This document shows positions 1 to 18,880 of a stretch of 18,880 nucleotides of DNA, piece after piece. Source of the DNA: a virus. Its lineage: Duplodnaviria; Heunggongvirae; Uroviricota; Caudoviricetes. The notes below the pieces were generated by a model that saw only the letters and a list, made by a program, of their open reading frames with translations, had not been told where the DNA came from and did no database searches. The stretch covers positions 1-18,880 of the IMG/VR virus record IMGVR_UViG_2529292904_000021; one strand, written 5' to 3'. The translations under genes were made by a program, and so were the position numbers. The stretch's first letter is position 1; each line of letters opens with the position of its first letter.

Positions 1-944
<944 letters not shown>

Positions 945-1136
945 GAATCCTCCCGGCCGGGATAATATTGTGAGTAAAATGAGGAGCGGGCTGAAGTCCG
1001 GAAGTTACAGGACAATGGCAGAAGAGAGACAACAGCCCGCAATACGAAAAAGGCCGCGCTATTGCGCAGAGTGATTACTGTCGGATATTATTCGCCAGCT
1101 GAAATATTACTTCACGTTTTGTTGTTTATTCCTTGC

Positions 1137-1200
1137 CGCCCGCGTCTCCCTGCGCGGGCTTTTTTTGTCCATAAGAAAGCCCCTCCGGAGAGGGGCTGGA
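1137..1200. terminator. Pair of GC-rich hairpins with flanking T/A runs (possible bidirectional terminator) between the tRNA cluster and the esterase gene
   Basis: cccgcgtctccctgcgcggg followed by TTTTTTT on the + strand; gcccctctccggaggggc followed by TTTCTT on the minus strand. Confidence 0.4.
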
Positions 1201-1433
1201 GAGTGGCGCTATGTGCCATTGCATGGTGCCGGGTGCCTCCCGGTGAATTCAGTACCAGCACCTGAATCCGCGATTATCCCATATACCTACTCGCTGATTG
1301 CCCCTCCGCACAGGGGGATTCACCATGCCAGTTTCTTTTAACAAACTCCCCGCAAACCAGACAACAGTCAACCGCCTGAATTGTGAGACATTTAAAAAAA
1401 AGGCCCGCAAAAGCGAGCCAGGGAAAATAAGTG

Positions 1434-1510
1434 TGGCGCGTTGTACTGGATTCGAACCAGTGACCGATTGCTTAGAAGGCAATTGCTCTGTCCGGCTGAG
1501 CTAACAACGC
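1434..1510 (-). tRNA. tRNA-Arg (anticodon UCU), phage argN/argO-type
   Basis: Reverse complement GCGTTGTTAGCTCAGCCGGACAGAGCAATTGCCTTCTAAGCAATCGGTCACTGGTTCGAATCCAGTACAACGCGCCA folds as a cloverleaf: 7-bp acceptor, GCTC/GAGC D-stem, anticodon loop CTTCTAA, T-loop TTCGAAT, encoded CCA. Confidence 0.8.
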
Positions 1511-1523
1511 AGGATACAGATAA

Positions 1524-1600
1524 TGGACCGCCTTCGGGGACCCGAACTCCGCGCAACCAGCTTCGAAAGCTGGCGCTCTTTCCTGATGAGCTAATGGCGG
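1524..1600 (-). tRNA. tRNA-Arg (anticodon UCG), phage-type; T-loop is non-canonical, so a pseudo-tRNA is possible
   Basis: Reverse complement CCGCCATTAGCTCATCAGGAAAGAGCGCCAGCTTTCGAAGCTGGTTGCGCGGAGTTCGGGTCCCCGAAGGCGGTCCA. D-arm and anticodon arm (loop TTTCGAA) are clean; the T-arm has one mismatch and loop TTCGGGT. Confidence 0.55.
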
Positions 1601-1607
1601 TATGTGA

Positions 1608-1683
1608 TGGTGGCCCTTGCTGGATTTGAACCAGCGACCTGGCGATTATGAGTCGCTCGCTCTCACCACTGAGCTAAAGGGCC
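1608..1683 (-). tRNA. tRNA-Ile2 (anticodon CAU, ileX/ileZ-like; would be scored Met by anticodon alone)
   Basis: Reverse complement GGCCCTTTAGCTCAGTGGTGAGAGCGAGCGACTCATAATCGCCAGGTCGCTGGTTCAAATCCAGCAAGGGCCACCA closely resembles E. coli ileX. Together with the two Arg tRNAs it forms the ileZ-argN-argO-type triplet found downstream of Q in lambdoid/Stx phages. Confidence 0.8.
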
Positions 1684-1711
1684 GGGTCAAAAAATAATAA
1701 TCAGATGAAAA

Positions 1712-2425
1712 TCAATAATCAAGCCCTTGCCTGGATACATATCTGTCTGGCGGGAAGCCATAATAGCGGTGAAATACAGAAATAAAGTAGGACCAGCTTG
1801 AATAACCGCATTTTTCTGCTACAGCCTGTCCATATCCATGCCGGGAACATAACATATTGACAGCAACACGCATCCGCTCTTCCAGCAACAAGCGACTGAA
1901 CATGTGCCCTTCATTTTTCAGTTTTATCTTTAACAAACTCTCACTCATATGCAGGCGTAACGCAATCGCACCAAGCGTCCAGCTTGCTGATATATCTGTC
2001 TGAATTATCGCCCTGACTTTGGCACTTATACTGGATAAACATCCACTTAAAAATAATAATATCCGTTCATCTGATTCAAACAGCGACAGGCATACCATCA
2101 TAAGAAACATATCCGTGGTATCTCCGGAAAATCTCTGGCTGGTAATTAAAGCCTCAACCAACGCAGGGTTGTTGGGTTCCAGTGACAGATAAAGCGGAAC
2201 GTCAGTCAGATGAGTTCTTGTCAGCTTATGCTGAATTTCCAGATATTGACTTACTATGGAATGGTTTATATCGAAAATTTTAACTTTGCCATAATGCATA
2301 AGGAAAAGCGCCCTGATGCATTTGGTGGCCAGAACGACTGAGCCGGGCTTAAGTGACAACGTATCCTTTTCAAGAAAAATATTAATTGGGGAGCAAACCA
2401 TGATAACTGAACAGACAACAACCAT
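1712..2425 (-). CDS. AraC/XylS-family transcriptional regulator (AppY/GadX-like small prophage regulator)
   Basis: C-terminal AraC-type double HTH (LLKIKLKNEGHMFSRLLLEERMRVAVNMLC...AVAEKCGYSSWSYFISVFHRYYGFPP). The N-terminal region resembles the AppY/YdeO class. AT-rich gene; N-terminal start codon uncertain. Confidence 0.75.
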   Translation of the reverse strand: MVVVCSVIMVCSPINIFLEKDTLSLKPGSVVLATKCIRALFLMHYGKVKIFDINHSIVSQYLEIQHKLTRTHLTDVPLYLSLEPNNPALVEALITSQRFSGDTTDMFLMMVCLSLFESDERILLFLSGCLSSISAKVRAIIQTDISASWTLGAIALRLHMSESLLKIKLKNEGHMFSRLLLEERMRVAVNMLCSRHGYGQAVAEKCGYSSWSYFISVFHRYYGFPPDRYVSRQGLDY

Positions 2426-2519
2426 TATAATTTTACTTTCATTAGCAATTGGTTAGTTCAATTATAGCCCCAAAAGGTAAATTATCATCAACACATAAGC
2501 AAAGGACTGACAGGTGCCG

Positions 2520-2759
2520 CTAACACCCACCAGCCGCCCATTTACCACAAATAAAAAAGCCTTCAGGACTGAAGGCGTCTGTAACAACCGAACTGATAGT
2601 CTGCCAGACCCGCATAACCAGCAGGGTCAGTATTAACTGGCAGCGCTCGCGTGAAAGGTACGTATTCTGCGCAATCTCCCCAACCGTCGCCGGTTCGGTG
2701 ACGCTTAATTCATCAAACACAACTCTGGCGGTTTCTGTCATATCCTGCTGTTTCAGCAT
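2520..2759 (-). CDS. Hypothetical 79-aa ORF; may instead be a short non-coding late leader transcript
   Basis: Track ORF with a weak SD. An intrinsic terminator hairpin (gccttcag...ctgaaggc plus T-run, ~2553-2580) lies inside its 3' end, which argues against the full ORF being translated. Confidence 0.25.
   Translation of the reverse strand: MLKQQDMTETARVVFDELSVTEPATVGEIAQNTYLSRERCQLILTLLVMRVWQTISSVVTDAFSPEGFFICGKWAAGGC
2553..2580 (-). terminator. Rho-independent terminator (candidate tR'-like)
   Basis: Minus-strand reading agacGCCTTCAGtccTGAAGGCttttttatttg. Confidence 0.55.
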
Positions 2760-2882
2760 GTCTTTTTACCCTTTCCGGTTAACGTGACACACCAATAACT
2801 CTTGTCGAAAAAGCCAGCAAGCTGAAAGACCTGTATTAATAACTACCAGCACATTTAACGCACTGCGCTACTTTGCGGGCAC

Positions 2883-2905
2883 AAAAAACCCGCTCAGAGG
2901 CGGGG
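2883..2905 (-). terminator. Rho-independent terminator downstream of the CPBP protease gene
   Basis: Minus-strand reading accCCGCCtctgaGCGGGttttttgtg. Confidence 0.55.
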
Positions 2906-3045
2906 TCAAGCTATGCGGCGAAATAACCACTCTTAACAGCATACCTGATTTTTTACGTACGTAAATGCTTTGCCGTGCATATTTTTCATGCAAATGTCAC
3001 GTCCTGCTATTTTTCAGTCTTATAAATTTAAAACCATAGAAAAAA

Positions 3046-3870
3046 TCAATTATGTTTTAAAAATGGATAGGTAAAGAATAACAAGTGACACAGATTCAAA
3101 CCAAAATGGAAAAGGGTGGCAACCCACAAACGCCCACTCCACATCCATGACAATCCATACACAACACCAGATAACGTGGCAAATAATACAAGTAAAGCAC
3201 CACCTGAATAGTGAAAAAAACCAAACAACAAAGCCGCCACAATTAATGCAACCAATGGAGACGTTACTTCTGATAGCCGTGATTGAATATACCCTCTAAA
3301 TAATGATTCCTCTGCCAGAGACACAAAAAACAAATTAGCCAATATAAACTCTGGCAACCACTCAGGAAAATGAATCTCTGGCTTTAATCCACCAAAAAAA
3401 ACAGCCAAAAACAGGATAAGAGGAACAGAGAGCGACAGAGCCCCCCACTTCCACAAAGACACTTCTGATTTTACTTCTTTTTTAAACAAAGAAGATGTAC
3501 ACAGGACTAACAAAAATGGCACCAGCGCTTTATCAAAATTAAAATACATTGTATAGGGAGTGCTTTGAGGGCCAACAGTAACAGAATTTAGCACTACAGG
3601 ATTGTGAAACCCTGGCCATAGATGGAAAGATAATGCTATGGCTGATAAAACCATGCCAACTTCATATATAGATTTAGCCCAGGCGTTATATTTCCAGTTG
3701 AACTTCAAAATAATAAAAAAAACGATTGTAGCAACAAAAAATAACACCGACCAATCAATAATATCATTAAGCACAGCCAGGACAACAGACACCGTCAACA
3801 ATGAAAAAGCCACTACCTTATGCCAACTGAGAGTTGACAGTGACAGTACTAACACAATCCACATAAGCAC
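3046..3870 (-). CDS. CPBP-family intramembrane metalloprotease (CAAX protease / Abi family, PF02517-like)
   Basis: Polytopic hydrophobic protein carrying the three CPBP signature motifs in order: EExxxR (AEESLFRGY), FxxxH (FGFFHYSGG), HxxxN (FHFGLNL). Strong RBS AAAGGAG 5 nt before the ATG. Markedly AT-rich. Confidence 0.8.
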   Translation of the reverse strand: MLMWIVLVLSLSTLSWHKVVAFSLLTVSVVLAVLNDIIDWSVLFFVATIVFFIILKFNWKYNAWAKSIYEVGMVLSAIALSFHLWPGFHNPVVLNSVTVGPQSTPYTMYFNFDKALVPFLLVLCTSSLFKKEVKSEVSLWKWGALSLSVPLILFLAVFFGGLKPEIHFPEWLPEFILANLFFVSLAEESLFRGYIQSRLSEVTSPLVALIVAALLFGFFHYSGGALLVLFATLSGVVYGLSWMWSGRLWVATLFHFGLNLCHLLFFTYPFLKHN

Positions 3871-4016
3871 TCCTTTTATTTAATGATGAAGATTGATTAT
3901 CAATATTTTCAATTCACCAGGCAACATTTTATCTACCTTCCACAATACATGACCATCAAAAAAATAAACATGTTAATTATAAACGCAGAAAACATAACCC
4001 TCATCACTATATATCC

Positions 4017-4388
4017 CTACCGCATATCCATATCTAACCGGACATTCAGAGCCATAAGCATTCCTTCAATAATACCTTCCGCTTTATAAAGCCTTTTACC
4101 AATAAGCCCATCAGAACATCTATGCTTACGTGCAAGAGCCATAAATGTCATTCCACCTACGTAATAATCCACCAACAAATCGTGCAAATACTGATTATTC
4201 TTGTTTAATCGTGCCATACAACCACAAATTATCATGGCGTCATCATCAGAACACTGAGGACGTGATTTCACTTTAGTCGGGATTAATCCTTTAAAACCAG
4301 CAGCTATCGAGGGCCATGTTACATCTTCATGATTATTTGCTGCCCATGCCCCCCATCGCTCAAGAACCATCTGGATATCACGCGCCAT
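4017..4388 (-). CDS. quuD: Late-gene antiterminator Q (QuuD / phage-82 Q family)
   Basis: [37 protein letters not shown]...CGCMARL...[18 protein letters not shown] matches DLP12 QuuD as I recall it. Track ORF is 4017..4397; the internal Met at 4388 matches the QuuD start. Confidence 0.85.
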
Positions 4389-4749
4389 CGTTACCACCTC
4401 TGATTTCGTAAATCTTCACGCCCAGCCGTCCACCTGGCACAGGCTGACCGCGCACAATATTGATTTCATCAAACTGCTCGTCATCAATGAGCACTTCCGC
4501 ATGCGTCAGCGCATCCAGCGGTGCTTTCAGAATGTTGTCCAGGTCACGGCGGCGCTTATCCGGTGGTTCTGCAATAATTTTTATTGCCAGCCGTCCGGAC
4601 AGGCTTAATTTCAGCCGCTGCTGGCGAACAATAAGCGCCACAGCCCGGCGATAACGCTCACCGGCTTTTGATACAAAATATGTGCTGCCACGACGTCGCC
4701 AGTAGGTGTTCACCGTCGGCGGGTAAGGCAAAACAAACTCTATACGCAT
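4378..4749 (-). CDS. rusA: Holliday-junction resolvase RusA
   Basis: RusA family signature ...[30 protein letters not shown]... with length ~120 aa; lies immediately upstream of Q as in DLP12. Confidence 0.85.
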
Positions 4750-4761
4750 CAGTAACCTCTT

Positions 4762-5811
4762 TTACCCGAGCACGCCGGTTGCAAAAGCGTGATCAAGAAA
4801 ACGAAAAATTAAATCAACCTGGGAACCATGCTTTTCTTCGAGCGCCAGCGGATCCGCATGAAGCTCGTTGTGATGCTCCCGACACAGCGGTAGCGTGAAA
4901 ATATCGTGGGATTTTGTTCCCATTCCACCCTGACCATGACCAATCAGATGATGAGGATCGTCCGCTGGCTTACCACAACACGCACACGGCTGTGTCTTTA
5001 CCCAGCGTGTGTATTTCTCATTTACCCAGCGGCGACGTTTAGGTCGTTTCATGAAAGATTCCGGAGACTCAGGATCAACGGCAATGCTGACCACCGTCTT
5101 TTCCTGTGGTGGGTTCTGTTGCTGGTGGGCGTGAGGCAGCGGCGCAAGATTTTTTGTGCGCTGTTTCAGTATGCTGGTGGCGGTCTGCTCTCCCGGTACG
5201 ATGTCGCTTTCGCGGTACACCGAGCAGATTTTTTCCGCTGGTAATCCCAGCGAGCGACGTAATACCGCTTCCGGTAGCGCGTCCGCCAGCTGATTGCGGA
5301 CCGCCCACCAGGATAATTCAGCCAGAGATAATTCACGCTCCTGCGTACCGCTTATTGCGTGACCGATGACGTCAATCATCCATGCTGACAGGTTTTGATG
5401 AGCAAGTTGCTCGAGTGATTCGGATGTCTGGTCACGCAGCTGGTTGTCGCAGTGCCAGCACAACACCATTGCGCCGGTACCATAACGGTGAATAACGGTT
5501 TCACTGTGATGATAGTCACCATGAGGCCACTGGCAGGATTTGACATGACGCAACAGCCAGTCAGACAGTGCACCAGCGCCACCAACAGCACGAATCACAC
5601 GCTCATTGCTGAAAAACGGCAGTAATGATTTATCCTCCACCAGCGGCTGGCGAACAGTGGGAACCGCTCCGGATGGCAGCGCCCGCATGTTTTTCGGTTC
5701 CGGCTCAACCAGCACCCTGCTGTGATGAAAAACCGGCAGTGATTCGCGCCCGGGCTTAAGGACCACCAGCCCGAGTTCCGGTACCGGAACAGGTCGAAGT
5801 AATACCCGCAC
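4762..5811 (-). CDS. ydfU: DUF968-domain protein (YdfU-like) with C-terminal HNH-like zinc-finger motif
   Basis: 349 aa, same length and position as Qin YdfU. C-terminus CACCGKPADDPHHLIGHGQGG...CREHHNELH resembles an HNH/Zn-ribbon motif. Confidence 0.7.
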   Translation of the reverse strand: MRVLLRPVPVPELGLVVLKPGRESLPVFHHSRVLVEPEPKNMRALPSGAVPTVRQPLVEDKSLLPFFSNERVIRAVGGAGALSDWLLRHVKSCQWPHGDYHHSETVIHRYGTGAMVLCWHCDNQLRDQTSESLEQLAHQNLSAWMIDVIGHAISGTQERELSLAELSWWAVRNQLADALPEAVLRRSLGLPAEKICSVYRESDIVPGEQTATSILKQRTKNLAPLPHAHQQQNPPQEKTVVSIAVDPESPESFMKRPKRRRWVNEKYTRWVKTQPCACCGKPADDPHHLIGHGQGGMGTKSHDIFTLPLCREHHNELHADPLALEEKHGSQVDLIFRFLDHAFATGVLG

Positions 5812-5812
5812 G

Positions 5813-6091
5813 TTACCTCCAGATGCGTTGCTGGAATGTGCGGGACGGACGCGGTGGGCGCTCGGAGTACGGCAGCCTGACGTAGATTATCCAGTGACGA
5901 TAATCGAGGCTGAGGGCTTTCCTAAACTCATACCCACGTCTGCGGTAGTTCTGAATCAGCCATTCGGCCTGTTCTTCAGTGCATGGGGCGTGCCGGAACC
6001 AGTCAGATTTGAATGCATGAGAACGCCGCCCGTGCCTGCTGGCAAAGACGGCTGAATTATCAGAATTGTGTAGTCTGGAATTTTGCGCCAT
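5813..6091 (-). CDS. Hypothetical phage protein (Rem-position gene of Qin-like prophages)
   Basis: Track ORF abutting the DUF968 start; no recognisable motif. Assigned by position only. Confidence 0.4.
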   Translation of the reverse strand: MAQNSRLHNSDNSAVFASRHGRRSHAFKSDWFRHAPCTEEQAEWLIQNYRRRGYEFRKALSLDYRHWIIYVRLPYSERPPRPSRTFQQRIWR

Positions 6092-6160
6092 CGGCTTTCT
6101 CCGGTGGCACAGTGTTACTCAACAGGGGTTCAGCCCTGCGCTGAATTGTAGATGAATTCA

Positions 6161-6418
6161 CTAATCTTCAAAAGCAGAAAAACCAGCCTTAATCCCAGCT
6201 TCTTTCAGAGACGGCAACGATGTGACAAATTCATTTGCACGCAAAATAAAACCATCCGTCACAAGCCCATCCACAAAGTAAATTAACGCAGCTCCACTCT
6301 TCCTATGTAGAGACTGTAAACATTTAATACGGCAGTGGCTGACAATAGCGCCATTCTCAACGCGCACAGTATAGAGGCCATCTTCACTAAAAATTTCACG
6401 TAATTCTTCGATTTTCAT
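6161..6418 (-). CDS. Hypothetical 85-aa protein
   Basis: Track ORF 6161..6466; the internal Met (MKIEELREIF...) is preceded by GGAAGGA at good spacing, so 6418 is the likely start. No known motif. Confidence 0.45.
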   Translation of the reverse strand: MKIEELREIFSEDGLYTVRVENGAIVSHCRIKCLQSLHRKSGAALIYFVDGLVTDGFILRANEFVTSLPSLKEAGIKAGFSAFED

Positions 6419-6550
6419 CAACAGAATCCTTCCAGATAAATAGCACTCCCCCTGTTCGGGGTCCATCCCTCTTCTCCCTGCGCGCTACTTAAGTATTTTT
6501 GATTCTATTCTGGCACCGTCCAAAACTTCAAACACGTTGAAAATAAAAAC

Positions 6551-6572
6551 AAAAAACCCGCCGAAGCGGGTA
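6551..6572 (-). terminator. Rho-independent terminator (copy 1 of a duplicated hairpin)
   Basis: + strand aaaaaaCCCGCcgaaGCGGGt, which is hairpin plus U-run on the minus strand, directly after the stop of the HTH-peptidase gene. Confidence 0.65.
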
Positions 6573-6575
6573 TAC

Positions 6576-7682
6576 TCAAACAATCTGGAAAATATTTCTT
6601 GGATTTGTAATAGGTCTGTTGATGGAGAACAACTCACGAATTAAATCTTGGCTCAAGCCAGTTTTCATAAGAATTCTTAGCCAGGTTGCATCATCCAGCA
6701 TTTCAATCGCCTCGGCCAGCATGCCGGGTTCTTCAGGGCGCAAAAGTTCATCACCAGGTTCAACTCTCGTATACCCTCTGGAATTAAGATGCATATAGCC
6801 AGTTCTTGCCTGTTCCTGGGTCAATAAGCCTAATGCGCTGGCTCGATAAATACACATTTTAAGGCTGATTTTCCATCTAAGTTTAAATTCAACCAGAGCA
6901 TTCCAGTCGAATTGCTTACCTCGTATTCGTGGAAATTCTTTAATGAAAGATAACCTGGGAACTAATAAGGCGCTCGAAAAGTGATCGGCTTGTGATTCCG
7001 TAAGTTTATCACCTGTCGTTATGCCCTCATGCATTACTAAATGCCCTAATTCATGACCTAAATCAGAGCGAAATCTACATATGCTTTTTTTAACATTGTT
7101 CCTGATGATAACAGGCCTGTTATTGTGAACAGTAAAAGCATCAACACGATCATCGACTCCCGTAACATGCGCAACGATTACCCCTAAACTCTCCGCCAAT
7201 TTAACCATTGATGATATAGGGCCAAGACCTAAATTCCAGGCACGGCGACAATCTTCTGCCACTCGCTCAATATCATTCGGAGTAAGTAATTCAGCCCCTG
7301 GGTGCTCCGGTATGTTAACGTCAGGAAATTCGATTTCACCTTCAACAGCAGAAATTATAATATTAAGAATCTCAGCCCTGGCCAATACACTATTAGTCAG
7401 CGTTTGAGTCCTGGACTTCTTACTCCGAAAATGGCAGACATCACTTTCCAGAGCGTATTTTCGTTCAGTAAAAAGAAAACTGGACTTAATCATAAGCGCT
7501 GAAGATATTAACTCAAGACATTGCTCCGATGGCCTGCACCCCTTCTCCAGTTTGCTAACAAATTGCTTTGTCTTGCCAATTTTTTCGGCTAACTCTTCAC
7601 AAGAAAGCCCAACAGCCATTCTCGCTAGTTTGAGCTTATCACCCCGATACTCAGTGAAGTTATTCACCTGATGTTCCATCAC
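6576..7682 (-). CDS. Fused XRE-family HTH regulator / ImmA-IrrE (M78, COG2856) zinc metallopeptidase
   Basis: N-terminal HTH (LKLARMAVGLSCEELAEKIGKTKQFVSKLEKG); HEXXH zinc motif (DLGHELGHLVMHEG) inside an ImmA/IrrE-like region. Start overlaps the upstream gene by 23 bp. Confidence 0.8.
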   Translation of the reverse strand: MMEHQVNNFTEYRGDKLKLARMAVGLSCEELAEKIGKTKQFVSKLEKGCRPSEQCLELISSALMIKSSFLFTERKYALESDVCHFRSKKSRTQTLTNSVLARAEILNIIISAVEGEIEFPDVNIPEHPGAELLTPNDIERVAEDCRRAWNLGLGPISSMVKLAESLGVIVAHVTGVDDRVDAFTVHNNRPVIIRNNVKKSICRFRSDLGHELGHLVMHEGITTGDKLTESQADHFSSALLVPRLSFIKEFPRIRGKQFDWNALVEFKLRWKISLKMCIYRASALGLLTQEQARTGYMHLNSRGYTRVEPGDELLRPEEPGMLAEAIEMLDDATWLRILMKTGLSQDLIRELFSINRPITNPRNIFQIV

Positions 7683-8340
7683 TGCTCACATCCAAATCTT
7701 TATCCTTCGTACGCCGACGAAGAGGCACCTTATTAATCTCCGCTTCGTCAGGGAGTGTGTTATAATCAAGAGGCATAAGCGGCATCGATGCTGTAGATTG
7801 ATGAGAAACTATACTAATCTGAGCACCATAAGTATTAAATCCAACAAGAGCTACCTCCCAACGAGGCAGTGTGGACTCTAATTCACCATCGCCCTCTTCG
7901 GATAAAAAAGGCTCAGCTATGACTCGCCATGTAATATCTTGCTCAGCCTCAACATCACCAAACAATGAGAGCTGCTCATACTCTACTTTATTTCGACGCA
8001 GACGATGTTTCTTTTTGGGGTTATTAATGCAATCTTTGGTAAATTGTAGCGGAACTTTATTTAAAGCAACTACATAGTCCACCCCCTTGGAAATCATCTC
8101 AAGGCCAGGAATTGCATCTTCATTTTGAATAAGATGATTTCTGACCCAATCATAAGCCCTTACACCTTCAGACCAGTTGCTGTCTAATGCGTGCTTATGA
8201 TAGTACAGCTGCTCAAGTACGTTAGCGATCTCCGCCAACAAGTGGCGAACATAGTTTTCAGCAAGATAAGGTTGAAATTCCCAACAAGGAGCTAACTGAT
8301 TTTCATTCATTTCAAGTTTCGCTTTTTTTAGAATTCGCAA
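7660..8340 (-). CDS. Hypothetical 226-aa protein, upstream partner of the HTH-ImmA gene
   Basis: Track ORF, apparently with a TTG start at 8340; alternative ATG near 8310 (MNENQLAPCWEF...). No recognisable domain. Overlaps and is co-oriented with the peptidase gene. Confidence 0.55.
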   Translation of the reverse strand: MRILKKAKLEMNENQLAPCWEFQPYLAENYVRHLLAEIANVLEQLYYHKHALDSNWSEGVRAYDWVRNHLIQNEDAIPGLEMISKGVDYVVALNKVPLQFTKDCINNPKKKHRLRRNKVEYEQLSLFGDVEAEQDITWRVIAEPFLSEEGDGELESTLPRWEVALVGFNTYGAQISIVSHQSTASMPLMPLDYNTLPDEAEINKVPLRRRTKDKDLDVSSDGTSGE

Positions 8341-8349
8341 ACCACATAT

Positions 8350-8385
8350 TTTCGCATTTTTCTATTTTTGTCAACCAGGCTAATG
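8350..8385 (-). promoter_or_regulatory. Candidate sigma70 promoter for the two-gene cassette
   Basis: Perfect -35 TTGACA on the minus strand (+ strand tgtcaa ~8367-8372), followed ~17 nt later by an A/T-rich -10-like AAATAT/TATGTG, sited between the hokD terminator and the cassette start. Confidence 0.4.
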
Positions 8386-8408
8386 CAAAAACCCGCCGAA
8401 GCGGGTTA
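8386..8408 (-). terminator. Rho-independent terminator of hokD (copy 2 of the duplicated hairpin)
   Basis: + strand caaaaaCCCGCcgaaGCGGGt, identical core to 6551-6572. Preceded on the minus strand by a second GC hairpin (ggcgggagattactcccccgcc, ~8440-8462) that resembles the hok fold-back element. Confidence 0.65.
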
Positions 8409-8475
8409 AGTGCGGGTGCGTTGAGGATGCCTGGCACATCAGAGGTGGCGGGAGATTACTCCCCCGCCGGGTCTC

Positions 8476-8631
8476 TTACTCCTCAGGTTCGTAAGCTGTG
8501 AAGACAGCGACCTCCGTCTGGCCGGTTCGGATTCGTACCTCGCAGAGGTCTTTCCTCGTTACCAGTGCCGTCACTATGACGGTTAAACAGATGACGATCA
8601 GGGCGATTAACATCGCCTTTTGCTGCTTCAT
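8476..8631 (-). CDS. hokD: Hok/Gef-family type I toxin HokD (RelF)
   Basis: Not in the ORF track (51 aa). My translation is MKQQKAMLIALIVICLTVIVTALVTRKDLCEVRIRTGQTEVAVFTAYEPEE, which matches E. coli HokD as I recall it. SD AAGGAG sits 9 nt upstream. Confidence 0.85.
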   Translation of the reverse strand: MKQQKAMLIALIVICLTVIVTALVTRKDLCEVRIRTGQTEVAVFTAYEPEE

Positions 8632-8842
8632 AGCCTGCTTCTCCTTGACCTTTTGGTCCGTAAGAGGCTAATCTCTATGTGTCGCATAGATATGGCCTCA
8701 GATTAATGTTAAGCGTCTTGCAGGACGCGTAATGTTAACTGGGGCTTTTCTCTATCTGCCTTTTGGTGTTCATGCCTGAGGCAGATAGCCTCAAGCACCC
8801 GCAGCAATTCTACTTAACTCCCGTCACCTCGCCAATATAAAA

Positions 8843-8932
8843 TCAATCAGAAAGGCGATCCATAAGAACAATAGCAAGACAATAAATTGCCACTACAGCC
8901 GCAATAGCCAGCGCGCATTTGAGAACCAGCAC
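8843..8932 (-). CDS. Candidate 29-aa hydrophobic small protein (GTG start)
   Basis: AGGAGG SD 5 nt upstream of GTG; translation MLVLKCALAIAAVVAIYCLAIVLMDRLSD is a single transmembrane-like helix. Unsupported beyond sequence features. Confidence 0.3.
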   Translation of the reverse strand: MLVLKCALAIAAVVAIYCLAIVLMDRLSD

Positions 8933-9002
8933 GATAACCTCCTGTATTGGACGTACACCAGCTCTGATAAATATGAGGCTGCCTCTTTAACTTCGCATTG
9001 CG

Positions 9003-10034
9003 CTACCAATCAATAAAATCAGTGATGTTATCCAACCTAATTACAGTAACTTCCCGTCTCAACTGGTTTTTCCAATATATCTCACGAGCGTTTTGTTCAC
9101 CAGCACCGCTCCACTCAATTACTCTTAAAGGCTTAGAGGTTAGGTAAGGTCGAATAAGCAGGTTAAGGTGAATATCGAGACCAGAGTAACCAAACAATAT
9201 TATTTCTTCTGATTCAAATAATGCAAACTGCAAATAATCCCAGTACGTAGAAAGAACATTAGATGCTGCTATAACTGACGGTTTTCTTTTTATATGAGTT
9301 AACACTATATGCTCACTAGGTTCATCTATGTCAAGAGTAAGTTGTGAGCGTGAAAGTTTTAAAACATTTTCATGCTGATTAATAAATAGTGGTGAACCAT
9401 GCAAGTGCAAATAATAACCAAACCTACGATTGTATTTCCGTTCGAGCGCTGCAGAGGAAAATCCGTGGCTTAGCATCCCATCAACTAAAACCCCATCATA
9501 CCCGTTGAATATATCATTATCTATGAATGAATTGTATAATAATTTGTCATAGTTTAATGTCGCGATATGTGAGTGTGTGTTCTTTACAAACTCCACAAGC
9601 GCATTTTCGAATCTTTGTGGCAAACCTTTATCGTAATTATGCAACCTGGTTGCAACTTTGTGAATATAAGTGGCGGTAATTTTGGGGAAGTTTAGTCCAT
9701 CTTCAGTAAGCCAATGCACGTTCCCCTCTCCAATTTGAGCAAGAGCTTTACAATATGTGACAGCCTGGTGAAGGGTATCCAACTCATGTTCTCCTTCTGG
9801 TGGACCTTGCCGCTGAAGACAACGCTCGATAAGTTGCTTGTGGATATCTTTTAAAAAATTGGGGCGATGCCAAATTTCTTCCAACGCTCTGTCTAAGGAG
9901 AAGTGAGCAGGATCTAAAGCCATACCGAGACCGTTGCCGAATATTATTAATTTTCTTGCCATATAGGGGGACTCATATTGGAATAACGCTGGATAGCGTA
10001 GCGCGATACGCTTAAGTTTAGGATTAATAGACAT
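9003..10034 (-). CDS. SIR2-like (sirtuin-fold, SIR2_2-type) protein; candidate NAD+-consuming antiphage effector
   Basis: Sirtuin-type motif order: glycine-rich LIIFGNGLGMA near the N-terminus, TLNYD (TTNYD-like), HLHGS (catalytic HG), and FGYSGLD near the C-terminus. AT-rich gene with an AT-rich upstream region. Confidence 0.55.
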   Translation of the reverse strand: MSINPKLKRIALRYPALFQYESPYMARKLIIFGNGLGMALDPAHFSLDRALEEIWHRPNFLKDIHKQLIERCLQRQGPPEGEHELDTLHQAVTYCKALAQIGEGNVHWLTEDGLNFPKITATYIHKVATRLHNYDKGLPQRFENALVEFVKNTHSHIATLNYDKLLYNSFIDNDIFNGYDGVLVDGMLSHGFSSAALERKYNRRFGYYLHLHGSPLFINQHENVLKLSRSQLTLDIDEPSEHIVLTHIKRKPSVIAASNVLSTYWDYLQFALFESEEIILFGYSGLDIHLNLLIRPYLTSKPLRVIEWSGAGEQNAREIYWKNQLRREVTVIRLDNITDFIDW

Positions 10035-10402
10035 TCCGTTTGATTACACTCGTTATTACAAACTTGCATGCAAAGAAGCCCAAGCTGTTAGGTAAACAGA
10101 GACCGCAGTGGCAAGATAATCTAGATATAGCCTATAAAATCCAACAACAAATAGCGGCCTGTTTTCTATGACTTTTCTTTTCCCTAAATATCACTTATCT
10201 AATAAAATGCAATAATGTATTGCACAGTATTTAATGTGTATTAATATAGATAAGTATTGGTCTTATTTGATAACAAATCCTGAGCCTCAAAATGTCTGCT
10301 TTTCACACAAAACCAACAAGTAGGCTATTTTTAGCTCTGTGCCGCGAAAATGTCAATTCATATCCGAACCAATACTCTTTAATTTCATTACCTGTGACAA
10401 TT

Positions 10403-10810
10403 CTAGGCATATCCCTGATAGAACGCCAATACACGCTGCATAACTTCGCTCTTCCGGCACTCGCGACAGATTATGTTCATACGCCTGTCGTAGCGGCGTA
10501 TTTCTCCGTCGGGTAATGTCCAGATAAGGCCCGGATCAACCACAACAGGTTTCTTCACCTTTGCCCTCGAGAGTTTTTTGCGGGCGTTTTGCCAGTCCTT
10601 ACGAGCCTGTTCTGACGGGAACAACCCATAGCCAGAGTGATATACATCACCACTGGCAACCAGCTCTCTGGCAAGAATGCTCATCAGATATCTTGTCGCA
10701 CCTGTTTTAGCTTCCAGTTGCCGTAGCGTCTCACGACCGCTCTGGCGCACGAGTTCCACCACCTGCCCTTTAATTTTTTCCCGCTCTTCTTGTGTAAAAA
10801 CTTTTGCCAC
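10403..10810 (-). CDS. Hypothetical 135-aa basic protein downstream of the replication initiator (possible replication-module accessory protein)
   Basis: Track ORF with GTG start, 40 bp after the O-like gene; no recognisable motif. Confidence 0.45.
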   Translation of the reverse strand: MAKVFTQEEREKIKGQVVELVRQSGRETLRQLEAKTGATRYLMSILARELVASGDVYHSGYGLFPSEQARKDWQNARKKLSRAKVKKPVVVDPGLIWTLPDGEIRRYDRRMNIICRECRKSEVMQRVLAFYQGYA

Positions 10811-10850
10811 AAGTCCCCCTTAAAATTACCTCATGACCTGAAATCAACAC

Positions 10851-11870
10851 TTATCCCCTGAAACCAGGCGGAATTTCTGTATCCGGTTCAGAAATATGAT
10901 TCACACAACGCTGTATAGACGAACGCCCCAGACGGATGACCAGTTCATCCCATTTTTCACGAAGCTTTGACGGGCTCATGATGTTTTTTACCCAGAATGG
11001 ATCTCGCTGTACCCGACCAAACATTTCGCAAATTTGTCTGTGGCTTCTGCCATCCAGCATCCGCATTGTGCGCACGTCATTGGCCCAGGCAGTCCAGTTA
11101 GGCTCTTTTGGTCGCATGATCTCGCCATCATCACTGGCTGCCTGTTCGTAGAGACCCACGATCCGCCCCCAGATCCACTGCGCACACGCCAAATCCTCCC
11201 TGCTACCCCACTGGCGTTTTTTCGCACTAAACACAACCGCGTCGGAGTTCCGGGTTAAAAAATCCTGTTCAGTCGTCTGCGGGTCCGGTTGCGAAGCTTC
11301 CGGACGAAAAGTGTTTTTATTCTCTGTAGTAATCTCTGTTGTATTCTCTGTAAGATCATCAGGCCATTTTGACCCGATGACATTGGGTCGTTTTGAACCA
11401 ATGGAGCGTTTCATTTTGACCTCTTCCATCGTGTCATTTTGACCTGATGGAGCGGCGCATTTTGAACCGATGGATTCGCTCAATTTGCCACCATCTAAAA
11501 GCTCGCTCCCATAGTTGATCGTGTAGAAATTGGTCATATCGCGCTTTGATTTATTGAGCTTTTCACAACGCAAAAGCCCCAGCGTTTTCAGACTTGCAAA
11601 CGCGCGCTTTAACGTTGACTCTGACCAGAATGGGAACTGTTCCAGCCATTGTTCCGTTGTGTTGTAAATCCAGCGAACACCATCACATTCCATGCCGGAA
11701 TTGGTATCTCTCAACCAGTAATGCAACTGCTGCAACACAATGGCTTCATTTAAGCCAATCTTCATCGCAAGCTGTGTGTTTATAACCAGTGGGCGTTCAG
11801 CAAAAAGAAGGCTCATAATTCCATCCAGCTTTTTGTTGGTATTGCTGTCGATACGCAAGTTTGAAAGCAA
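10851..11870 (-). CDS. Lambda O-like replication initiator protein
   Basis: N-terminus MSLLFAERPLVINTQLAMKIGLNEAIVLQQLHYWL is typical of phage O / replication proteins. The central linker is encoded by iterons (repeated IGSK peptide). Likely true start is the MSLLF Met near 11816; the track start is 11870. Confidence 0.75.
   Translation of the reverse strand: MLSNLRIDSNTNKKLDGIMSLLFAERPLVINTQLAMKIGLNEAIVLQQLHYWLRDTNSGMECDGVRWIYNTTEQWLEQFPFWSESTLKRAFASLKTLGLLRCEKLNKSKRDMTNFYTINYGSELLDGGKLSESIGSKCAAPSGQNDTMEEVKMKRSIGSKRPNVIGSKWPDDLTENTTEITTENKNTFRPEASQPDPQTTEQDFLTRNSDAVVFSAKKRQWGSREDLACAQWIWGRIVGLYEQAASDDGEIMRPKEPNWTAWANDVRTMRMLDGRSHRQICEMFGRVQRDPFWVKNIMSPSKLREKWDELVIRLGRSSIQRCVNHISEPDTEIPPGFRG
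11321..11481. repeat. Candidate phage replication origin: about five ~23-bp iterons plus adjacent short repeats, inside the O-like gene
   Basis: Iterons with core CATTTTGA(C/A)C..ATGG beginning near 11366, 11390, 11413, 11436 and 11459. Three tctctgt(a/t)gtaa-type repeats at ~11321-11356 lie on the far side, mirroring the lambda ori layout (iterons then AT-rich segment within O). Confidence 0.7.
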
Positions 11871-12318
11871 TTGCTTTTTCTATAAGTTCGTCAGTTTCAC
11901 GATCCACTACGGCAGGATCAGCAAAAAGCAGTCCGGACTCCACCACATCGCCATATTCTTTGTTTAACCCGGCGATCATGTACGTGATGCTTTTTCCGTC
12001 ACTAATTTCACGATACAACCTGAAATCATTAATCCGGATAGCCTCCATAATTGCAGGCACTAGCGCCGTGAACTTTTCACGCTTATCCCTAGTGTCGATA
12101 GCCTTCCAGCGTTCGAATATCTTCACTCGATTAACGCCAAGCGCTCGCTGATCAACCGCGCCACCTTCATCTGTGACACGCTGAACCTCGATGTTCGGGC
12201 GCTCTTTCAAAGCCCAGAATGCTTCAGTGATTAATATCGTCGCCTGCTCCTGTGTCATTCCTGGTCGACATATCCAGGCATCCAGAGCCTCACGAGCCTG
12301 TTCAGGAGTGATTTTCAT
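11797..12318 (-). CDS. Hypothetical protein at the cII position (between Cro-like and O-like genes)
   Basis: Track ORF; start overlaps the dicC-like stop. Assigned by position in the early-right operon; no motif recognised. Confidence 0.5.
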   Translation of the reverse strand: MKITPEQAREALDAWICRPGMTQEQATILITEAFWALKERPNIEVQRVTDEGGAVDQRALGVNRVKIFERWKAIDTRDKREKFTALVPAIMEAIRINDFRLYREISDGKSITYMIAGLNKEYGDVVESGLLFADPAVVDRETDELIEKAIAFKLAYRQQYQQKAGWNYEPSFC

Positions 12319-12529
12319 TGTTCAACCGCCCCGCCCGCTTCGTCTTACGATATTCGTCATAAACCTTGGGATCATACTGAAGCTCGCCGCCAGATGCCTC
12401 CTGTAGACGCATCGCGCGACCTTCAGGAACCAGCTCTTGCCATTGAGAAACAGCAGATGGGTCAACGCCAGCAGCTTTCGCTACTTTAGCTTTCGTACCG
12501 TAAAAATTAATTACGTCTGATTTAAACAT
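12302..12529 (-). CDS. dicC: DicC-like Cro-type repressor
   Basis: MFKSDVINFYGTKAKVAKAAGVDPSAVSQWQ...VPEGRAMRLQEASGGELQYDPKVYDEY resembles Qin DicC. GGAGGTG SD before the ATG at 12529. Track ORF is extended upstream to 12556. Confidence 0.75.
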   Translation of the reverse strand: MFKSDVINFYGTKAKVAKAAGVDPSAVSQWQELVPEGRAMRLQEASGGELQYDPKVYDEYRKTKRAGRLNNENHS

Positions 12530-12606
12530 CGCACCTCCAATATTGAGTTTTCTCAATGCTAATCACTCAAGGAATCTCAAGTCAAGGGTTATTAAGATAT
12601 CTAAAT

Positions 12607-13014
12607 ATGAACGAGAAAACTTTAGGTCAACGCATTAGAGAAAGACGTAAGCAGGTAGGCTTAAGTCAAAACGGTTTAAGCAAAGCTGCTGGCGTATCTG
12701 GCTCATCAATTTCATTATGGGAAAGTGACCATACAGCCCCGCGCGGGCAAAATTTGCATCGCCTCGCCGAGGTATTGCAATGTTCACCAACCTGGATACT
12801 GTTTGGCGACGAGGACAAAACACCAGCTCCCCCTGTTTCACTCGATAGTGCCTTAGACTTATCGGAAGATGAGTTAGAGATGTTGCGTTTGTATCGCGCA
12901 CTTCCTAAATCAGAGCAACAAGCACAACTCAGCGAACTCCGCGCCCGCGTTGAGAATTTTAATCGCCTGTTCACCGAGCTATTAGAGGCTCGCAAACGCA
13001 ACAAGCATCAATAA
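12607..13014 (+). CDS. dicA: DicA-like CI-type repressor (XRE HTH, no S24 peptidase domain)
   Basis: MNEKTLGQRIRERRKQVGLSQNGLSKAAGVSGSSISLWE...LQCSPTWILFGDEDK closely parallels DicA. Divergent from the dicC-like gene with a ~75-bp intergenic operator region. Track ORF starts at 12556. Confidence 0.8.
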   Translation: MNEKTLGQRIRERRKQVGLSQNGLSKAAGVSGSSISLWESDHTAPRGQNLHRLAEVLQCSPTWILFGDEDKTPAPPVSLDSALDLSEDELEMLRLYRALPKSEQQAQLSELRARVENFNRLFTELLEARKRNKHQ

Positions 13015-13207
13015 TCATCCCTTCACAAAATTTTAAAGCCTTACATTTCAATGTATTGGCTTTATCTTGCGTCAATACTTGAGTTTTCTCATCAAAAAAC
13101 CCTGACAAAAAAACAATGAGAAAACTAAATTACCTCCATCAAGACACCGCACGGTGTTCTCAGCAAACAGTTCCGCTACCCCGGCGTTAAGGGGAAATGA
13201 GGTCAAC

Positions 13208-13360
13208 ATGGATACTATCGATCTTGGCAACAACGAATCTCTGGTATGCGGCGTGTTTCCCAACCAAGACGGCACGTTCACCGCGATGACGTATACCAAA
13301 AGCAAAACGTTTAAAACCGAATCTGGCGCGCGTCGCTGGTTAGCAAGAAACTCTGACTAA
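13208..13360 (+). CDS. ydfA: YdfA-like small protein (DUF1391)
   Basis: MDTIDLGNNESLVCGVFPNQDGTFTAMTYTKSKTFKTESGARRWLARNSD matches Qin YdfA as I recall it. GAGGT SD upstream; sits after dicA as in Qin. Confidence 0.75.
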   Translation: MDTIDLGNNESLVCGVFPNQDGTFTAMTYTKSKTFKTESGARRWLARNSD

Positions 13361-13473
13361 TGAAATCTGGTAATTAAGGAATCCTCCACGGGGGGGAGTG
13401 GTGCACACGCGCCGGACACAAGCAAGCATCCGGCATGCTCTTTAACAATCTGGATATCCATAACAGTAAAAAT

Positions 13474-13965
13474 CTACAGATTGCCGTTCAGTTTTCTGGC
13501 CAACTCTTCAAGAGATGGAGGCGATACGTAATCCGGATTTTTATTCATAAGAAACTGATTTTCACAGTACAGGCACCTGCTTTTATGAAAAAATTCATAT
13601 TCTCTAACCGGGAATGGCTGAAGTATCGATACTATCTTTTGTCCAAAACATTTTGGACAAAGATGCATGATTATGCTGCCGCCGTTCACGGTTACCTCCT
13701 TCGAGTACACAAAAGTTCCCGACTCAAGTTGGCTAAGGATATAACCTTCCGTCTGAGCCTCAAAGTTTTCAAATTCTGCAATTTTAGCTTTGAGAGAAGC
13801 ATTTATTTCTTGATAAGTGCCCACCAGCTCAACGAGAGACACGCATTCGCGCTGAATAGATGCAAGCTTTGAGTTCAGTTCACCAATAGCCGCATTTACT
13901 TCAGCTTGAGTTTTTGCCTCGTTCATTAGTTTTGCAATCTGGGCGGTTTCACGAATAGCCGTCAT
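13474..13965 (-). CDS. Hypothetical coiled-coil protein with C-terminal CxxC...CxxC zinc ribbon, reverse-oriented inside the dicB operon
   Basis: Track ORF 13474..14223. Protein-like composition starts at MTAIRETAQIAKLMNEAKTQ... (Met at 13965); the C-terminus has HLCPKCFGQK...CLYCENQF. The N-terminal 86 codons of the track ORF run across tandem repeats and are probably not coding. Confidence 0.5.
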   Translation of the reverse strand: MTAIRETAQIAKLMNEAKTQAEVNAAIGELNSKLASIQRECVSLVELVGTYQEINASLKAKIAEFENFEAQTEGYILSQLESGTFVYSKEVTVNGGSIIMHLCPKCFGQKIVSILQPFPVREYEFFHKSRCLYCENQFLMNKNPDYVSPPSLEELARKLNGNL

Positions 13966-14003
13966 TGCTGCCGTTAATTCAGCGATCACATTCAATACTC
14001 TTA

Positions 14004-14051
14004 TTGTTGTTGGGGATATCCAGATTAACAAGATCCTTGTTGTTGGGGAAT
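14004..14051. repeat. Tandem direct repeat TTGTTGTTGGGGA(A)TA (2 copies, ~32 bp apart) upstream of the reverse-oriented gene
   Basis: ttgttgttggggata at ~14004 and ttgttgttggggaata at ~14036. A further inverted repeat cctcgcc...ggcgagg lies at ~14065-14115. Confidence 0.5.
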
Positions 14052-14303
14052 AACGGGGACCACCTCGCCTGACGTGGTAAAAAGCAGGCACACAACACGA
14101 AAGCACACGGCGAGGTTGCTGGTTCATAGATAGCCTATCGTTAAATTTTCGTCGACCGTGCGCTTCCGGTTGTGGCAATCCGCGAAATGGCGCGGCGGTA
14201 AGTATGGCTGGGGTTTCCTCCATTGCTCCAGAAAATGCACCGGGTTGTCAGGTTGACCATACGCTTAAGTGACAACCCCGCTACAACGCCCTCTGTTATC
14301 AAT

Positions 14304-14361
14304 TTTCTGGTGACATTTGGCGGTATCAGTTTTACTCCGTGACTGCTCTGCCGCCCTTTTT
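14304..14361 (+). ncRNA. dicF: DicF small RNA (ftsZ-targeting sRNA processed from the dicB operon transcript)
   Basis: TTTCTGGTGACATTTGGCGGTATCAGTTTTACTCCGTGACTGCTCTGCCGCCCTTTTT matches E. coli DicF as I recall it, including the terminator hairpin GGCGG...CCGCC plus U-run. Sits immediately upstream of dicB. Confidence 0.85.
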
Positions 14362-14530
14362 AAAGTGAATTTTGTGATGCGGTGAATGCGGCTAAGCGCA
14401 CGCGGAACAGTTAAAACCAAAAACAGTGTTATGGGTGGATTCTCTGTATCCGGCGTTAATTGTTAACTGGTTAACGTCACCTGGAGGCACCAGGCACTGC
14501 ATCACAAAATTCATTGTTGAGGACGCGATA

Positions 14531-14719
14531 ATGGAAACGTTATTACCAAACGTTAATACGTCTGAAGGTTGTTTTGATATTGGTGTTCTGCTCAGTAATA
14601 AAGCGTTTACTGAGGATGCCATTAATATGCGGAAATATGAGCCTTATCTGCTCAATGATAATTCCATACTTTCCCGAATTGCTCTTCTTGAACTTGGTAT
14701 TTTCGGAGAACAGCAGTGA
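14531..14719 (+). CDS. dicB: DicB cell-division inhibitor
   Basis: 62 aa, METLLPNVNTSEGCFDIGVLLSNKAFTEDAIN... resembles DicB (MKTLLPNVNTSEGCFEIG...). GAGGA SD upstream. Track ORF is extended upstream to 14426. Confidence 0.8.
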   Translation: METLLPNVNTSEGCFDIGVLLSNKAFTEDAINMRKYEPYLLNDNSILSRIALLELGIFGEQQ

Positions 14720-14904
14720 CCTCAGCATTTGCACTGGTGATGACCGTTTTTCTTATAACGGGTGAGCCGCAGAATGTAATTACCGGAATTTATGACAGTA
14801 AGTCATCCTGCATTCAGGTAAGGGACGAACAAAAAATCCCCGGTGAATGCCTCCCGTTAAAAAAAGTGTCGCTGAACCTGAATAACGAAATACCGGCTGG
14901 ATAA
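14716..14904 (+). CDS. ydfD: YdfD-like small membrane (lysis) protein
   Basis: MTSAFALVMTVFLITGEPQNV...EQKIPGECLPLKKV...NEIPAG resembles YdfD. GTG start overlaps the dicB stop (GTGA), consistent with translational coupling. Confidence 0.7.
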   Translation: MTSAFALVMTVFLITGEPQNVITGIYDSKSSCIQVRDEQKIPGECLPLKKVSLNLNNEIPAG

Positions 14905-14996
14905 CCCTCCAGCCATATTAACGCCATACCAACGGATTAAAAATACCAGCAATGGCAGGAATTTGTTCATCCTTAAAATGGTTATGAGGTTTATCA

Positions 14997-17414: not shown

Positions 17415-17472
17415 TGTTCAACCCGGATCGCCGCTAACGGCATATAGTTAGCGGCGGTTGTGAGATATAGCT

Positions 17473-18701: not shown

Positions 18702-18800
18702 TTCCAAGTGTGATTTTTATCACTGACTTGATGGCGTGTAAGTGATTGAATTTTGGCGGAGAGAGGGGGATTTGAACCCCCGGTGGAGTTGCCCCCACTC
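18702..18800. other. Probable prophage/chromosome junction (att site overlapping the 3' part of tRNA-Ser)
   Basis: Integrase stop at 18701 with the tRNA 3' end at ~18754. Core sequence not delimited because the other prophage end lies outside the window. Confidence 0.4.
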
Positions 18801-18843: not shown

Positions 18844-18880
18844 GTTCAGATGGTTGCCATGATGCCAGGAAATTTGGCAT

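Follow-up and report, generated by a model that had tools for sequence, protein, structure and literature searches.

We analysed an 18,880-nucleotide stretch of DNA from a tailed phage (Duplodnaviria; Heunggongvirae; Uroviricota; Caudoviricetes; IMG/VR record IMGVR_UViG_2529292904_000021, positions 1 to 18,880), referred to here as the window. Between the gene for the antiterminator Q and the tRNA triplet ileZ-argN-argO, this lambdoid prophage carries a gene for a CPBP intramembrane protease and a gene for an AraC-type regulator, which we identify from its sequence as psrA. The main new result, supported by homology to a mapped promoter and by comparison of related phages, is the location of the late promoter pR' 3' of the CPBP gene. 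In our view pR' probably stands between two cargo genes that are independent of each other, CPBP lying outside the late operon and psrA inside it. All genes of the locus lie on the minus strand, and coordinates are positions in the window (Table 1).

Predicted position of the late promoter

The promoter was placed by homology to prophage Sp5 of E. coli Sakai. Sy et al. (2020; PMC7547250) mapped the Sp5 pR' start to 1,266,203 by differential RNA sequencing (dRNA-seq) and the 3' end at tR' to 1,266,460 by Term-seq, the two standing 258 nt apart. These coordinates belong to record NC_002695.1. We took the offset to the current record to be +142, from the presumed coordinate at which Sp5 begins in the older one. 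With this offset, the published start fell on an A located 7 nt after TTTACG-16-TATCAT, and the 3' end fell on the last T of the T-run of a hairpin; because these two features also stand exactly 258 nt apart, the offset fits. Window positions 2965-2883 aligned with the promoter of Sp5 and the initial ~50 nt of its leader, and the mapped Sp5 start is homologous to A2931 of the window. The counterpart of A2931 in Sakai prophage Sp4 is position 1,178,171 of NC_002695.2 (+ strand), the A of AAGAGTGG.

A blastn search of phage records with the 106-bp pR' unit found it in 83 of them, at one place in each. The leader (AAGAGTGGTTA...; AGTGGTTA...) was kept together with its hairpin as a single copy in these 83 phage genomes, and the window also holds one copy. 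The window Q matched the solved Q21 structure (PDB 6p18, E=7e-8), and its amino-acid identity was 88% to the Q of ev207, 81% to Q933 of Sakai Sp5 and 48% to the Q of phage Stx2_EH2201. In phages with a Q 84-88% identical to that of the window (ev207, 2G7b, the PhiR series and others), homology set in precisely at the -35 hexamer and ended in the T-run. Where Q was 48% identical, it began only at the end of the -10 hexamer, leaving the transcribed leader alone in common. The -35 hexamer and spacer followed the Q clade, reading TTTACG[TA or AT]CGTAAAAA, GCGGTCCGCAAA or GCGTACGCAAAAA; a Q-binding element placed between the promoter hexamers, where it is located in phage 21 (PMC6606751), would produce such a pattern.

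At 2952-2964 (minus strand) there is a short palindrome that shares bases with the -35 hexamer of pR'. It reads TTACGTACGTAA in the window, TACGATCGTA in Sp5, GCGTACGC in SfII and GCGGTCCGC in both EH2201 and the cdtI phage. Its sequence differs from one Q clade to another, which makes it a candidate for the element that Q binds.

The position of the pR' unit relative to Q was checked in seven phages. In ev207 and 434B the unit stands ~1.65 kb 3' of Q, past an opposite-strand porin gene and ~140 bp ahead of the holin gene. In SfII, the cdtI phage and a Stx1a phage it comes after 1.4-2.1 kb of opposite-strand genes and is followed directly by the holin gene, by the small open reading frame (ORF) and a methylase gene, or by stx1A. 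A promoter of the late genes cannot precede oppositely oriented genes; these arrangements therefore indicate that the unit is the late promoter and that a slot for cargo lies between Q and pR'. The segment from 2960 to 2490 of the window (terminator, small ORF, terminator) was ~90% identical to Stx2 phage sequence, and in Stx2_EH2201 it lies directly 3' of the 48%-identical Q. Across ~40 prophage loci in IMG/VR the order Q, CPBP, leader was constant, the leader beginning ~115 nt past the CPBP stop codon. The assignment of 2965-2883 as the late promoter, with CPBP between it and Q, is in our view well supported by these homologies. A preliminary description of this DNA had proposed from the terminator layout that the CPBP gene may precede the true late promoter, and the placement of the homologue of the mapped Sp5 start 3' of CPBP agrees with that proposal.

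Two cargo slots on either side of pR'

Related phages fill the two positions differently or leave them empty, as expected of variable cargo and not of core lysis or structural genes. The CPBP position is taken by a porin gene (ev207, 434B), by unannotated opposite-strand genes (SfII, cdtI, Stx1a phage) or by nothing, and the AraC position by a DNA methylase gene or nothing. Within the ~40 CPBP-bearing prophages, the gene past the small ORF is psrA, a Stx2-type DNA methylase gene or none, and the tRNA sets vary. Genes like psrA also occur without CPBP, for example in phiSTEC1575-Stx2k, where one stands ahead of the tRNAs and stx2k. The two genes had been described at first as a single cargo block; they instead occupy two slots flanking pR' and assort independently.

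Compared with Sakai Sp5/933W (Q933, pR', StxS, tR', tRNAs, stx2AB), the window has a homologous pR' and leader start with its hairpin and an equal tRNA triplet, and it lacks both the StxS-type 258-nt leader and stx. In Sp5 the end of Q runs into the -35 hexamer, leaving no gap, whereas in the window 1.05 kb containing CPBP separates Q from pR'. The closer parallel is with ev207 and 434B, which combine a Q of the same clade with cargo between Q and the same promoter-leader-terminator unit. Their cargo is the opposite-strand porin gene, whereas the window carries a forward CPBP gene that would be open to read-through from the early operon. The quuD-nmpC-essD arrangement of prophage DLP12 is presumably the same as that of ev207 and 434B.

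In a Stx1-type prophage (L065 4001-7401; IMG/VR UViG_2529293138_000009), a CPBP gene with 86% identity stands between Q and pR'. The order there is Q, CPBP, pR', a StxS-like leader with tR', stx1AB and holin, the A subunit being 94% identical to Stx1a. The arrangement, which had been presented as one of a prophage without stx, is not special to such prophages.

Proposed expression of the cargo genes

Transcription from pR' (start predicted at A2931) would run through the short leader to terminator T1 and, where it continues, through the decayed small winged-helix ORF to terminator T2. Placed in the slot between Q and pR', the CPBP gene would stand outside the Q-dependent late operon. It may be transcribed in the lysogen from a sigma-70-type promoter of its own, by read-through of the early operon past Q after induction, or by both. 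Our scan found no terminator between Q and CPBP or between CPBP and pR'; early transcription that passes Q could for this reason enter CPBP, and the CPBP mRNA should end at T1. The candidate promoter upstream of CPBP has an equivalent in the 83%-identical CPBP lineage, where TTGTCA-17-GATAAT (10/12) stands at the same position.

The psrA gene lies 3' of pR', T1 and T2 and 5' of the tRNAs, in the slot taken by a DNA methylase gene in Stx2 phages. It probably has its own promoter, and on induction Q-modified RNA polymerase would read through it as well, as happens with stx in Stx phages.

The pR' leader should give rise to a constitutive RNA of ~48 nt ending at T1. In the Sakai Stx2 phage (L026 946-1003) an even stronger hairpin with U7 occurs at +28 to +50, upstream of tR' at +258; the accessible text of the StxS paper does not mention it. 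At permissive thresholds, Rfam matched neither the pR' leader nor the Q-CPBP gap to a known RNA family. HnrS, a 66-nt prophage small RNA (sRNA) reported in 2026, had no match in the window, although the query was weak, its pattern being one that we presume from the 3' end of mazF. A promoter TTGATT-18-TATGCT followed by a strong terminator was seen 3' of the lambda-type Q of another prophage (L017 5761-5862) and would give an RNA of ~66 nt, the length of HnrS; the two were compared by length alone. The frameshift in the small ORF is a polymorphism, the 1-nt deletion being present in the window and Sakai Sp4 and an intact 65-residue form in Stx2 phages and many CPBP prophages.

The CPBP protein

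The product of the first cargo gene matched PF02517 over residues 171-260 with 70 bits against a cut-off of 22.4. Its start is likely ATG 3864, which lies 5 nt after AAGGAG and gives 272 residues as in RefSeq; GTG 3870, the start listed by the reading-frame program, is less likely. The family and the ribosome-binding site given in the preliminary description stand, and the label of metalloprotease does not, the family now being annotated as glutamic endopeptidases. The catalytic motifs EExxxR (E185, E186, R190), FxxxH (F214, H218) and HxxxN (H253, N257) were invariant in an alignment of 30 homologous sequences, which also revealed a conserved loop specific to the subfamily, PGFHNP...MYFNFDKALVPF, at residues 84-117. 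An AlphaFold2 model of the protein had a mean predicted local distance difference test score (pLDDT) of 91.5. In a fold search of the PDB, SpdC (6u0o_A, template modelling (TM) score 0.47, probability 1.00) and Rce1 (4cad_L, TM 0.39) came out on top, all others having a probability of 0.07 or less; a search of a viral structure library returned distant CAAX-protease-like proteins and nothing else. Across CPBP alleles that are 56-85% identical, dN/dS was 0.12-0.23 and all reading frames were intact; these ratios indicate that CPBP is maintained by selection. Motifs, model and substitution pattern together point to a catalytically competent intramembrane protease under purifying selection.

Prophage alleles that are 83%, 62% and 59% identical to the window CPBP each stand directly 3' of a Q of the same family. 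A 56%-identical allele (L017) is found with an unrelated lambda-type Q, which is followed by a promoter-terminator unit, CPBP and the holin gene. None of the 50,697 deposited phage genomes contained the gene. Its protein belongs to PHROG 13291, a group without assigned function, and reached none of the NCBIfam equivalog cut-offs; a literature search for ECs1085 or a prophage CPBP returned nothing relevant and no published phenotype or expression data. The three motifs and the fold are shared with Rce1, with SpdC/LyrA and MroQ of S. aureus, with the Abi immunity proteins of lactic acid bacteria and with the myxosortases. The window protein differs from these in having its own loop at 84-117 and no adjoining gene for a bacteriocin, peptide pheromone or sorting-signal substrate.

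Our best guess, by analogy with these relatives, is that CPBP is a membrane factor expressed in the lysogen, by which the host is protected or modified; it might exclude superinfecting phages, confer immunity to a bacteriocin or cleave a protein of the host envelope. A more specific proposal, that it is an active intramembrane protease kept beside Q by phages of several Q types for cleaving one particular inner-membrane target (a phage DNA-entry factor, a bacteriocin receptor or a host envelope sensor), we put forward tentatively and with more doubt than confidence.

The AraC-type regulator

The second cargo gene encodes a protein with a C-terminal helix-turn-helix domain (HTH_18, 36.6 against a cut-off of 33.6; HTH_AraC, 35.3 against 26.6), and its stop codon lies 28 nt ahead of the tRNA triplet. 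The protein was identical at 235 of 237 residues to the full-length ECs1087 reading frame of Sakai, with identical synteny. ECs1087 has been named psrA (Poudyal et al., Tree laboratory, 2026; PMC13502914). The Sakai annotation gives 195 residues from an internal Met; the long form of 237 residues is favoured since the YdeO profile aligns from residue 1. The closest NCBIfam models were YdeO (103.8 against a cut-off of 348) and GadX (86.2 against 500), and both equivalog cut-offs were missed; the protein is kin to YdeO and GadX and belongs to neither. The 64-bp gap upstream of the gene was 92% conserved in the Stx2k phage.

For the function of PsrA we relied on two reviews (PMC10877973; PMC8565820) and on PMC13502914. 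According to the reviews, PsrA and its 90%-identical paralogue PsrB are AraC/XylS regulators that induce GadE and YhiF, leading to repression of type III secretion from the enterocyte effacement locus (LEE), and PsrB binds the hdeA and gadE promoters. By its sequence, the AraC gene of the window is psrA, which controls acid resistance by the GAD system as well as type III secretion, this function being carried over from O157:H7. The earlier remark that prophage AraC-like regulators can rewire host acid resistance or virulence thus applies to this gene as a psrA orthologue. Like PsrA, PsrB and PatE of enterohaemorrhagic E. coli (EHEC) O157:H7, which regulate GAD and LEE, it has a YdeO/GadX-like sequence with a C-terminal helix-turn-helix; it differs in belonging to a stx-negative O55:H7 host and in being known here from its sequence. 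A second AraC copy was looked for in Sakai Sp10 and was absent, and PsrB was not located.

Points against and alternative explanations

Several observations count against the arrangement that we favour, with CPBP outside and psrA inside the late operon, or against the host-directed role suggested for CPBP. Each pR' hexamer matches the consensus at 4 of 6 positions, and a simple promoter scan does not list the site; its placement in this prophage comes from homology. In Sp5 the mapped 3' end lies at +258 and not at the T1-like hairpin (+28 to +50), a caveat on the termination expected at T1. The position of CPBP relative to pR' is not universal, as in the lambda-type-Q lineage its homologue lies downstream of the promoter-terminator unit. 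A search 3' of Q in seven loci for Q21-type direct repeats, with 6-mers spaced by 7-11 bp, found one only in EH2201 (AGTATGT twice, 8 bp apart) and none in the window, where we also saw no clear -10-like element of a sigma-dependent pause at pR'. As to the role of CPBP, neither the CPBP nor the AraC protein had a PADLOC match at E <= 0.01, and no candidate substrate gene was conserved beside CPBP in the contexts inspected. At ~50% identity, homologues are common across Enterobacterales and Pseudomonas; each is a lone gene, the chromosomal surroundings vary and no neighbour is conserved. The names given to psrA also differ, the gene being Z1789 in OI-50 (EDL933) in the reviews and ecs1087 in Sp4 in PMC13502914.

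One alternative would put pR' in the 152-bp gap right after Q, so that CPBP becomes the first Q-dependent late gene and the unit at 2965-2883 a terminator or relic. We regard this as improbable. The gap does hold several sigma-70-like matches, the -35 hexamer of Sp5 pR' overlaps the end of Q, and the CPBP homologue of L017 lies after its promoter-terminator unit and before holin. However, there is no terminator between Q and CPBP, the homologue of the mapped pR' is 3' of CPBP and in single copy, and other phages have the unit far from Q, past opposite-strand cargo. When aligned with the sequence 3' of Q in ev207 and 434B, the gap also showed no convincing conservation, despite the 88%-identical Q of these phages. 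Two other explanations bear on the role of CPBP. It might be an anti-phage defence or abortive-infection gene that gives the lysogen a dedicated immune system, which we think unlikely although less so than a promoter right after Q. Lambdoid cargo slots frequently house defence genes, the same prophage has a Rosmer pair and a weaker SIR2 candidate (marginal PADLOC matches), and the position of CPBP implies expression independent of the late genes. Set against these points, the protein has no PADLOC model match and falls in a PHROG group without function, close chromosomal homologues sit among housekeeping genes, and the name Abi attached to PF02517 reportedly refers to bacteriocin self-immunity and not to phage abortive infection; the link to abortive infection raised in the preliminary description found no support. 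The purifying selection, intact reading frames and invariant motifs of the divergent alleles, and the retention of the place beside Q as they diverged, make it hard to regard CPBP as a silent passenger, that is, as AT-rich silenced foreign DNA without function that is retained by linkage to Q and psrA. Its GC content (38%, with 29% in the upstream gap) is typical of H-NS-silenced DNA, and the lack of published phenotype or expression data and of the gene in deposited phage genomes would also be consistent with silence. We give that explanation little credence, and prefer a maintained CPBP gene in a slot upstream of pR'.

Distribution of the module and its meaning

The module is not new. Window positions 1400-5900 aligned end to end with Sakai Sp4 at 97.3% DNA identity over 4.5 kb with a single gap, and the gene order was equal: ECs_1082 (DUF968), ECs_1083 (RusA), ECs_1084 (Q), ECs_1085, ECs_1086, ECs_1087 and ileZ1-argN1-argO1. 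There, ECs_1085 is annotated as 'phage CAAX amino terminal protease family protein', ECs_1086, which has the identical small-ORF frameshift, as a hypothetical protein and ECs_1087 as 'AraC-family transcriptional regulator'. Amino-acid changes relative to Sp4 numbered 3 in CPBP, 2 in PsrA and 1 in Q. The window differs from Sp4 in that its nanS-p gene is cut by an insertion sequence (IS) element, and the window-type prophage is integrated at serU in O55:H7, differing from the Sp4 site. With the module annotated in Sp4 since publication of that genome and psrA already characterised, its novelty is below what was at first implied. The locus is ordinary mosaic cargo of a lambdoid late-regulatory region, in which one gene (psrA) is known and the other was annotated only.

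At least 80% of the 3,051-bp stretch from Q to the tRNAs was present in 534 of 5,426 complete E. coli genomes. The CPBP block occurred in 573 of the same genomes, nearly always as one copy with at least 99% identity, and psrA in ~725, with a median of two copies. Hosts among the matches listed were mostly O157:H7, O55:H7, O26, O111, O145, O103 and O121.

For lambdoid phages of the Q933/QuuD clade, these arrangements suggest that a cargo slot can part the late promoter from Q, so that a gene 'after Q' is not automatically Q-dependent. This bears on the prediction of induction-responsive prophage genes, toxin genes included. CPBP, being intact, under purifying selection and present in roughly a tenth of these genomes and in no deposited phage genome, is a candidate lysogenic-conversion factor. 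Should it cleave a specific membrane target, it would be an unrecognised factor of this kind in ~1/10 of complete E. coli genomes, mostly of EHEC and enteropathogenic E. coli (EPEC), and would usually be inherited together with PsrA. For the AraC gene, nothing is added to what is known of PsrA biology.

Layout of the locus and neighbouring features

Table 1. Features of the late-regulatory region, listed in the direction of transcription
Feature	Position	Strand	Basis or remark
DUF968 gene	5811-4762	-	
RusA gene	4749-4378	-	
Antiterminator Q, Q21/Q933/QuuD type, 123 aa	4017-4388	-	PF06530, 175 bits; start per RefSeq
Q-CPBP gap	152 bp	-	29% GC
Candidate promoter of CPBP gene (TTGCCT-17-GATAAT)	3896-3924	-	consensus scan 9/12; prediction
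CPBP (Rce1-like) intramembrane glutamic endopeptidase, 272 aa, orthologue of Sakai ECs_1085	3046-3864	-	PF02517
Late promoter pR' (-35 TTTACG 2965-2960; 16-nt spacer; -10 TATGCT 2943-2938)	2938-2965	-	homology to Sakai Sp5 promoter; predicted start A2931
pR' leader, ~48 nt, with intrinsic terminator T1 (hairpin 2904-2889, T6 2888-2883)	2883-2931	-	hairpin and T-run
Small winged-helix ORF, 79 aa (PHROG 331, annotated TrmB family)	2520-2759	-	frameshift by 1-nt deletion
Intrinsic terminator T2 (hairpin 2576-2559 and T6)	2553-2576	-	within 3' end of the ORF; where the intact small ORF stops
Candidate promoter of psrA (ATGATA-16-TATAAT)	2461-2488	-	consensus scan 10/12; prediction
AraC/XylS regulator, PsrA orthologue (ECs1087), 237 aa	1712-2425	-	HTH_18, HTH_AraC
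tRNA triplet ileZ (anticodon CAT), argN (TCG), argO (TCT)	1434-1683	-	ARAGORN, Rfam, RefSeq annotation
Intrinsic terminator T3, 3' of tRNAs	1395-1419	-	fold -13.8 kcal/mol, z = -4.5
STnc100-like sRNA	1167-1357	-	Rfam 138 bits
nanS-p N-terminus, first 111 codons	944-609	-	interrupted by IS3-family element

The stretch from Q to the tRNAs (1400-4450, 3,051 bp) was 100% identical to that of E. coli O55:H7 RM12579, in which it belongs to a lambdoid prophage integrated beside tRNA-Ser(CGA) and mtfA. The gene set of the preliminary description was recovered in full, namely Q, the CPBP reading frame, two terminators around a short ORF, the AraC reading frame and ileZ-argN-argO, with no stx. A tblastn search of the window with Stx1A, Stx2A and Stx2B gave chance matches only. 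The AT-richness claimed for the cargo was likewise apparent, with 38% GC in CPBP, 29% in the Q-CPBP gap and 42% in psrA against 54% in RusA and DUF968. The space between Q and the tRNAs, which had been called the toxin slot, is a different place from that of stx in Stx phages; stx lies 3' of the tRNAs, where the window has only a terminator and the STnc100-like sRNA. This sRNA, between the tRNAs and nanS-p, thus takes the stx position. STnc100 has been tied to prophage PasD sRNAs in a 2026 preprint. The nanS-p framework was found in part, the N-terminus being present and the gene truncated: an IS3-family transposase reading frame (13-639, plus strand) cuts it after ~111 codons, at a place where RM12579 has an intact 1.85-kb esterase gene. 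By this difference the window derives from another O55:H7-like strain.

Other cargo lies further along the window. A Rosmer defence pair occupies 6576-8310 (minus strand) and consists of RmrA (helix-turn-helix and peptidase, 367 aa, PADLOC E=6e-105) and an overlapping upstream RmrT (216 aa, E=5.5e-25), for which RefSeq gives the labels 'helix-turn-helix domain-containing' and 'hypothetical' only. A stand-alone SIR2-family protein of 319 aa at 9003-9962 (minus strand) had weak PADLOC matches (Aga_SIR2, E=3e-6, and PDC-S21) and may be defence cargo. The window also contains a hokD/sok toxin-antitoxin locus (8476-8800) and the DicF sRNA with dicB (14305-14356), both typical cargo of Qin/Rac-like prophages.

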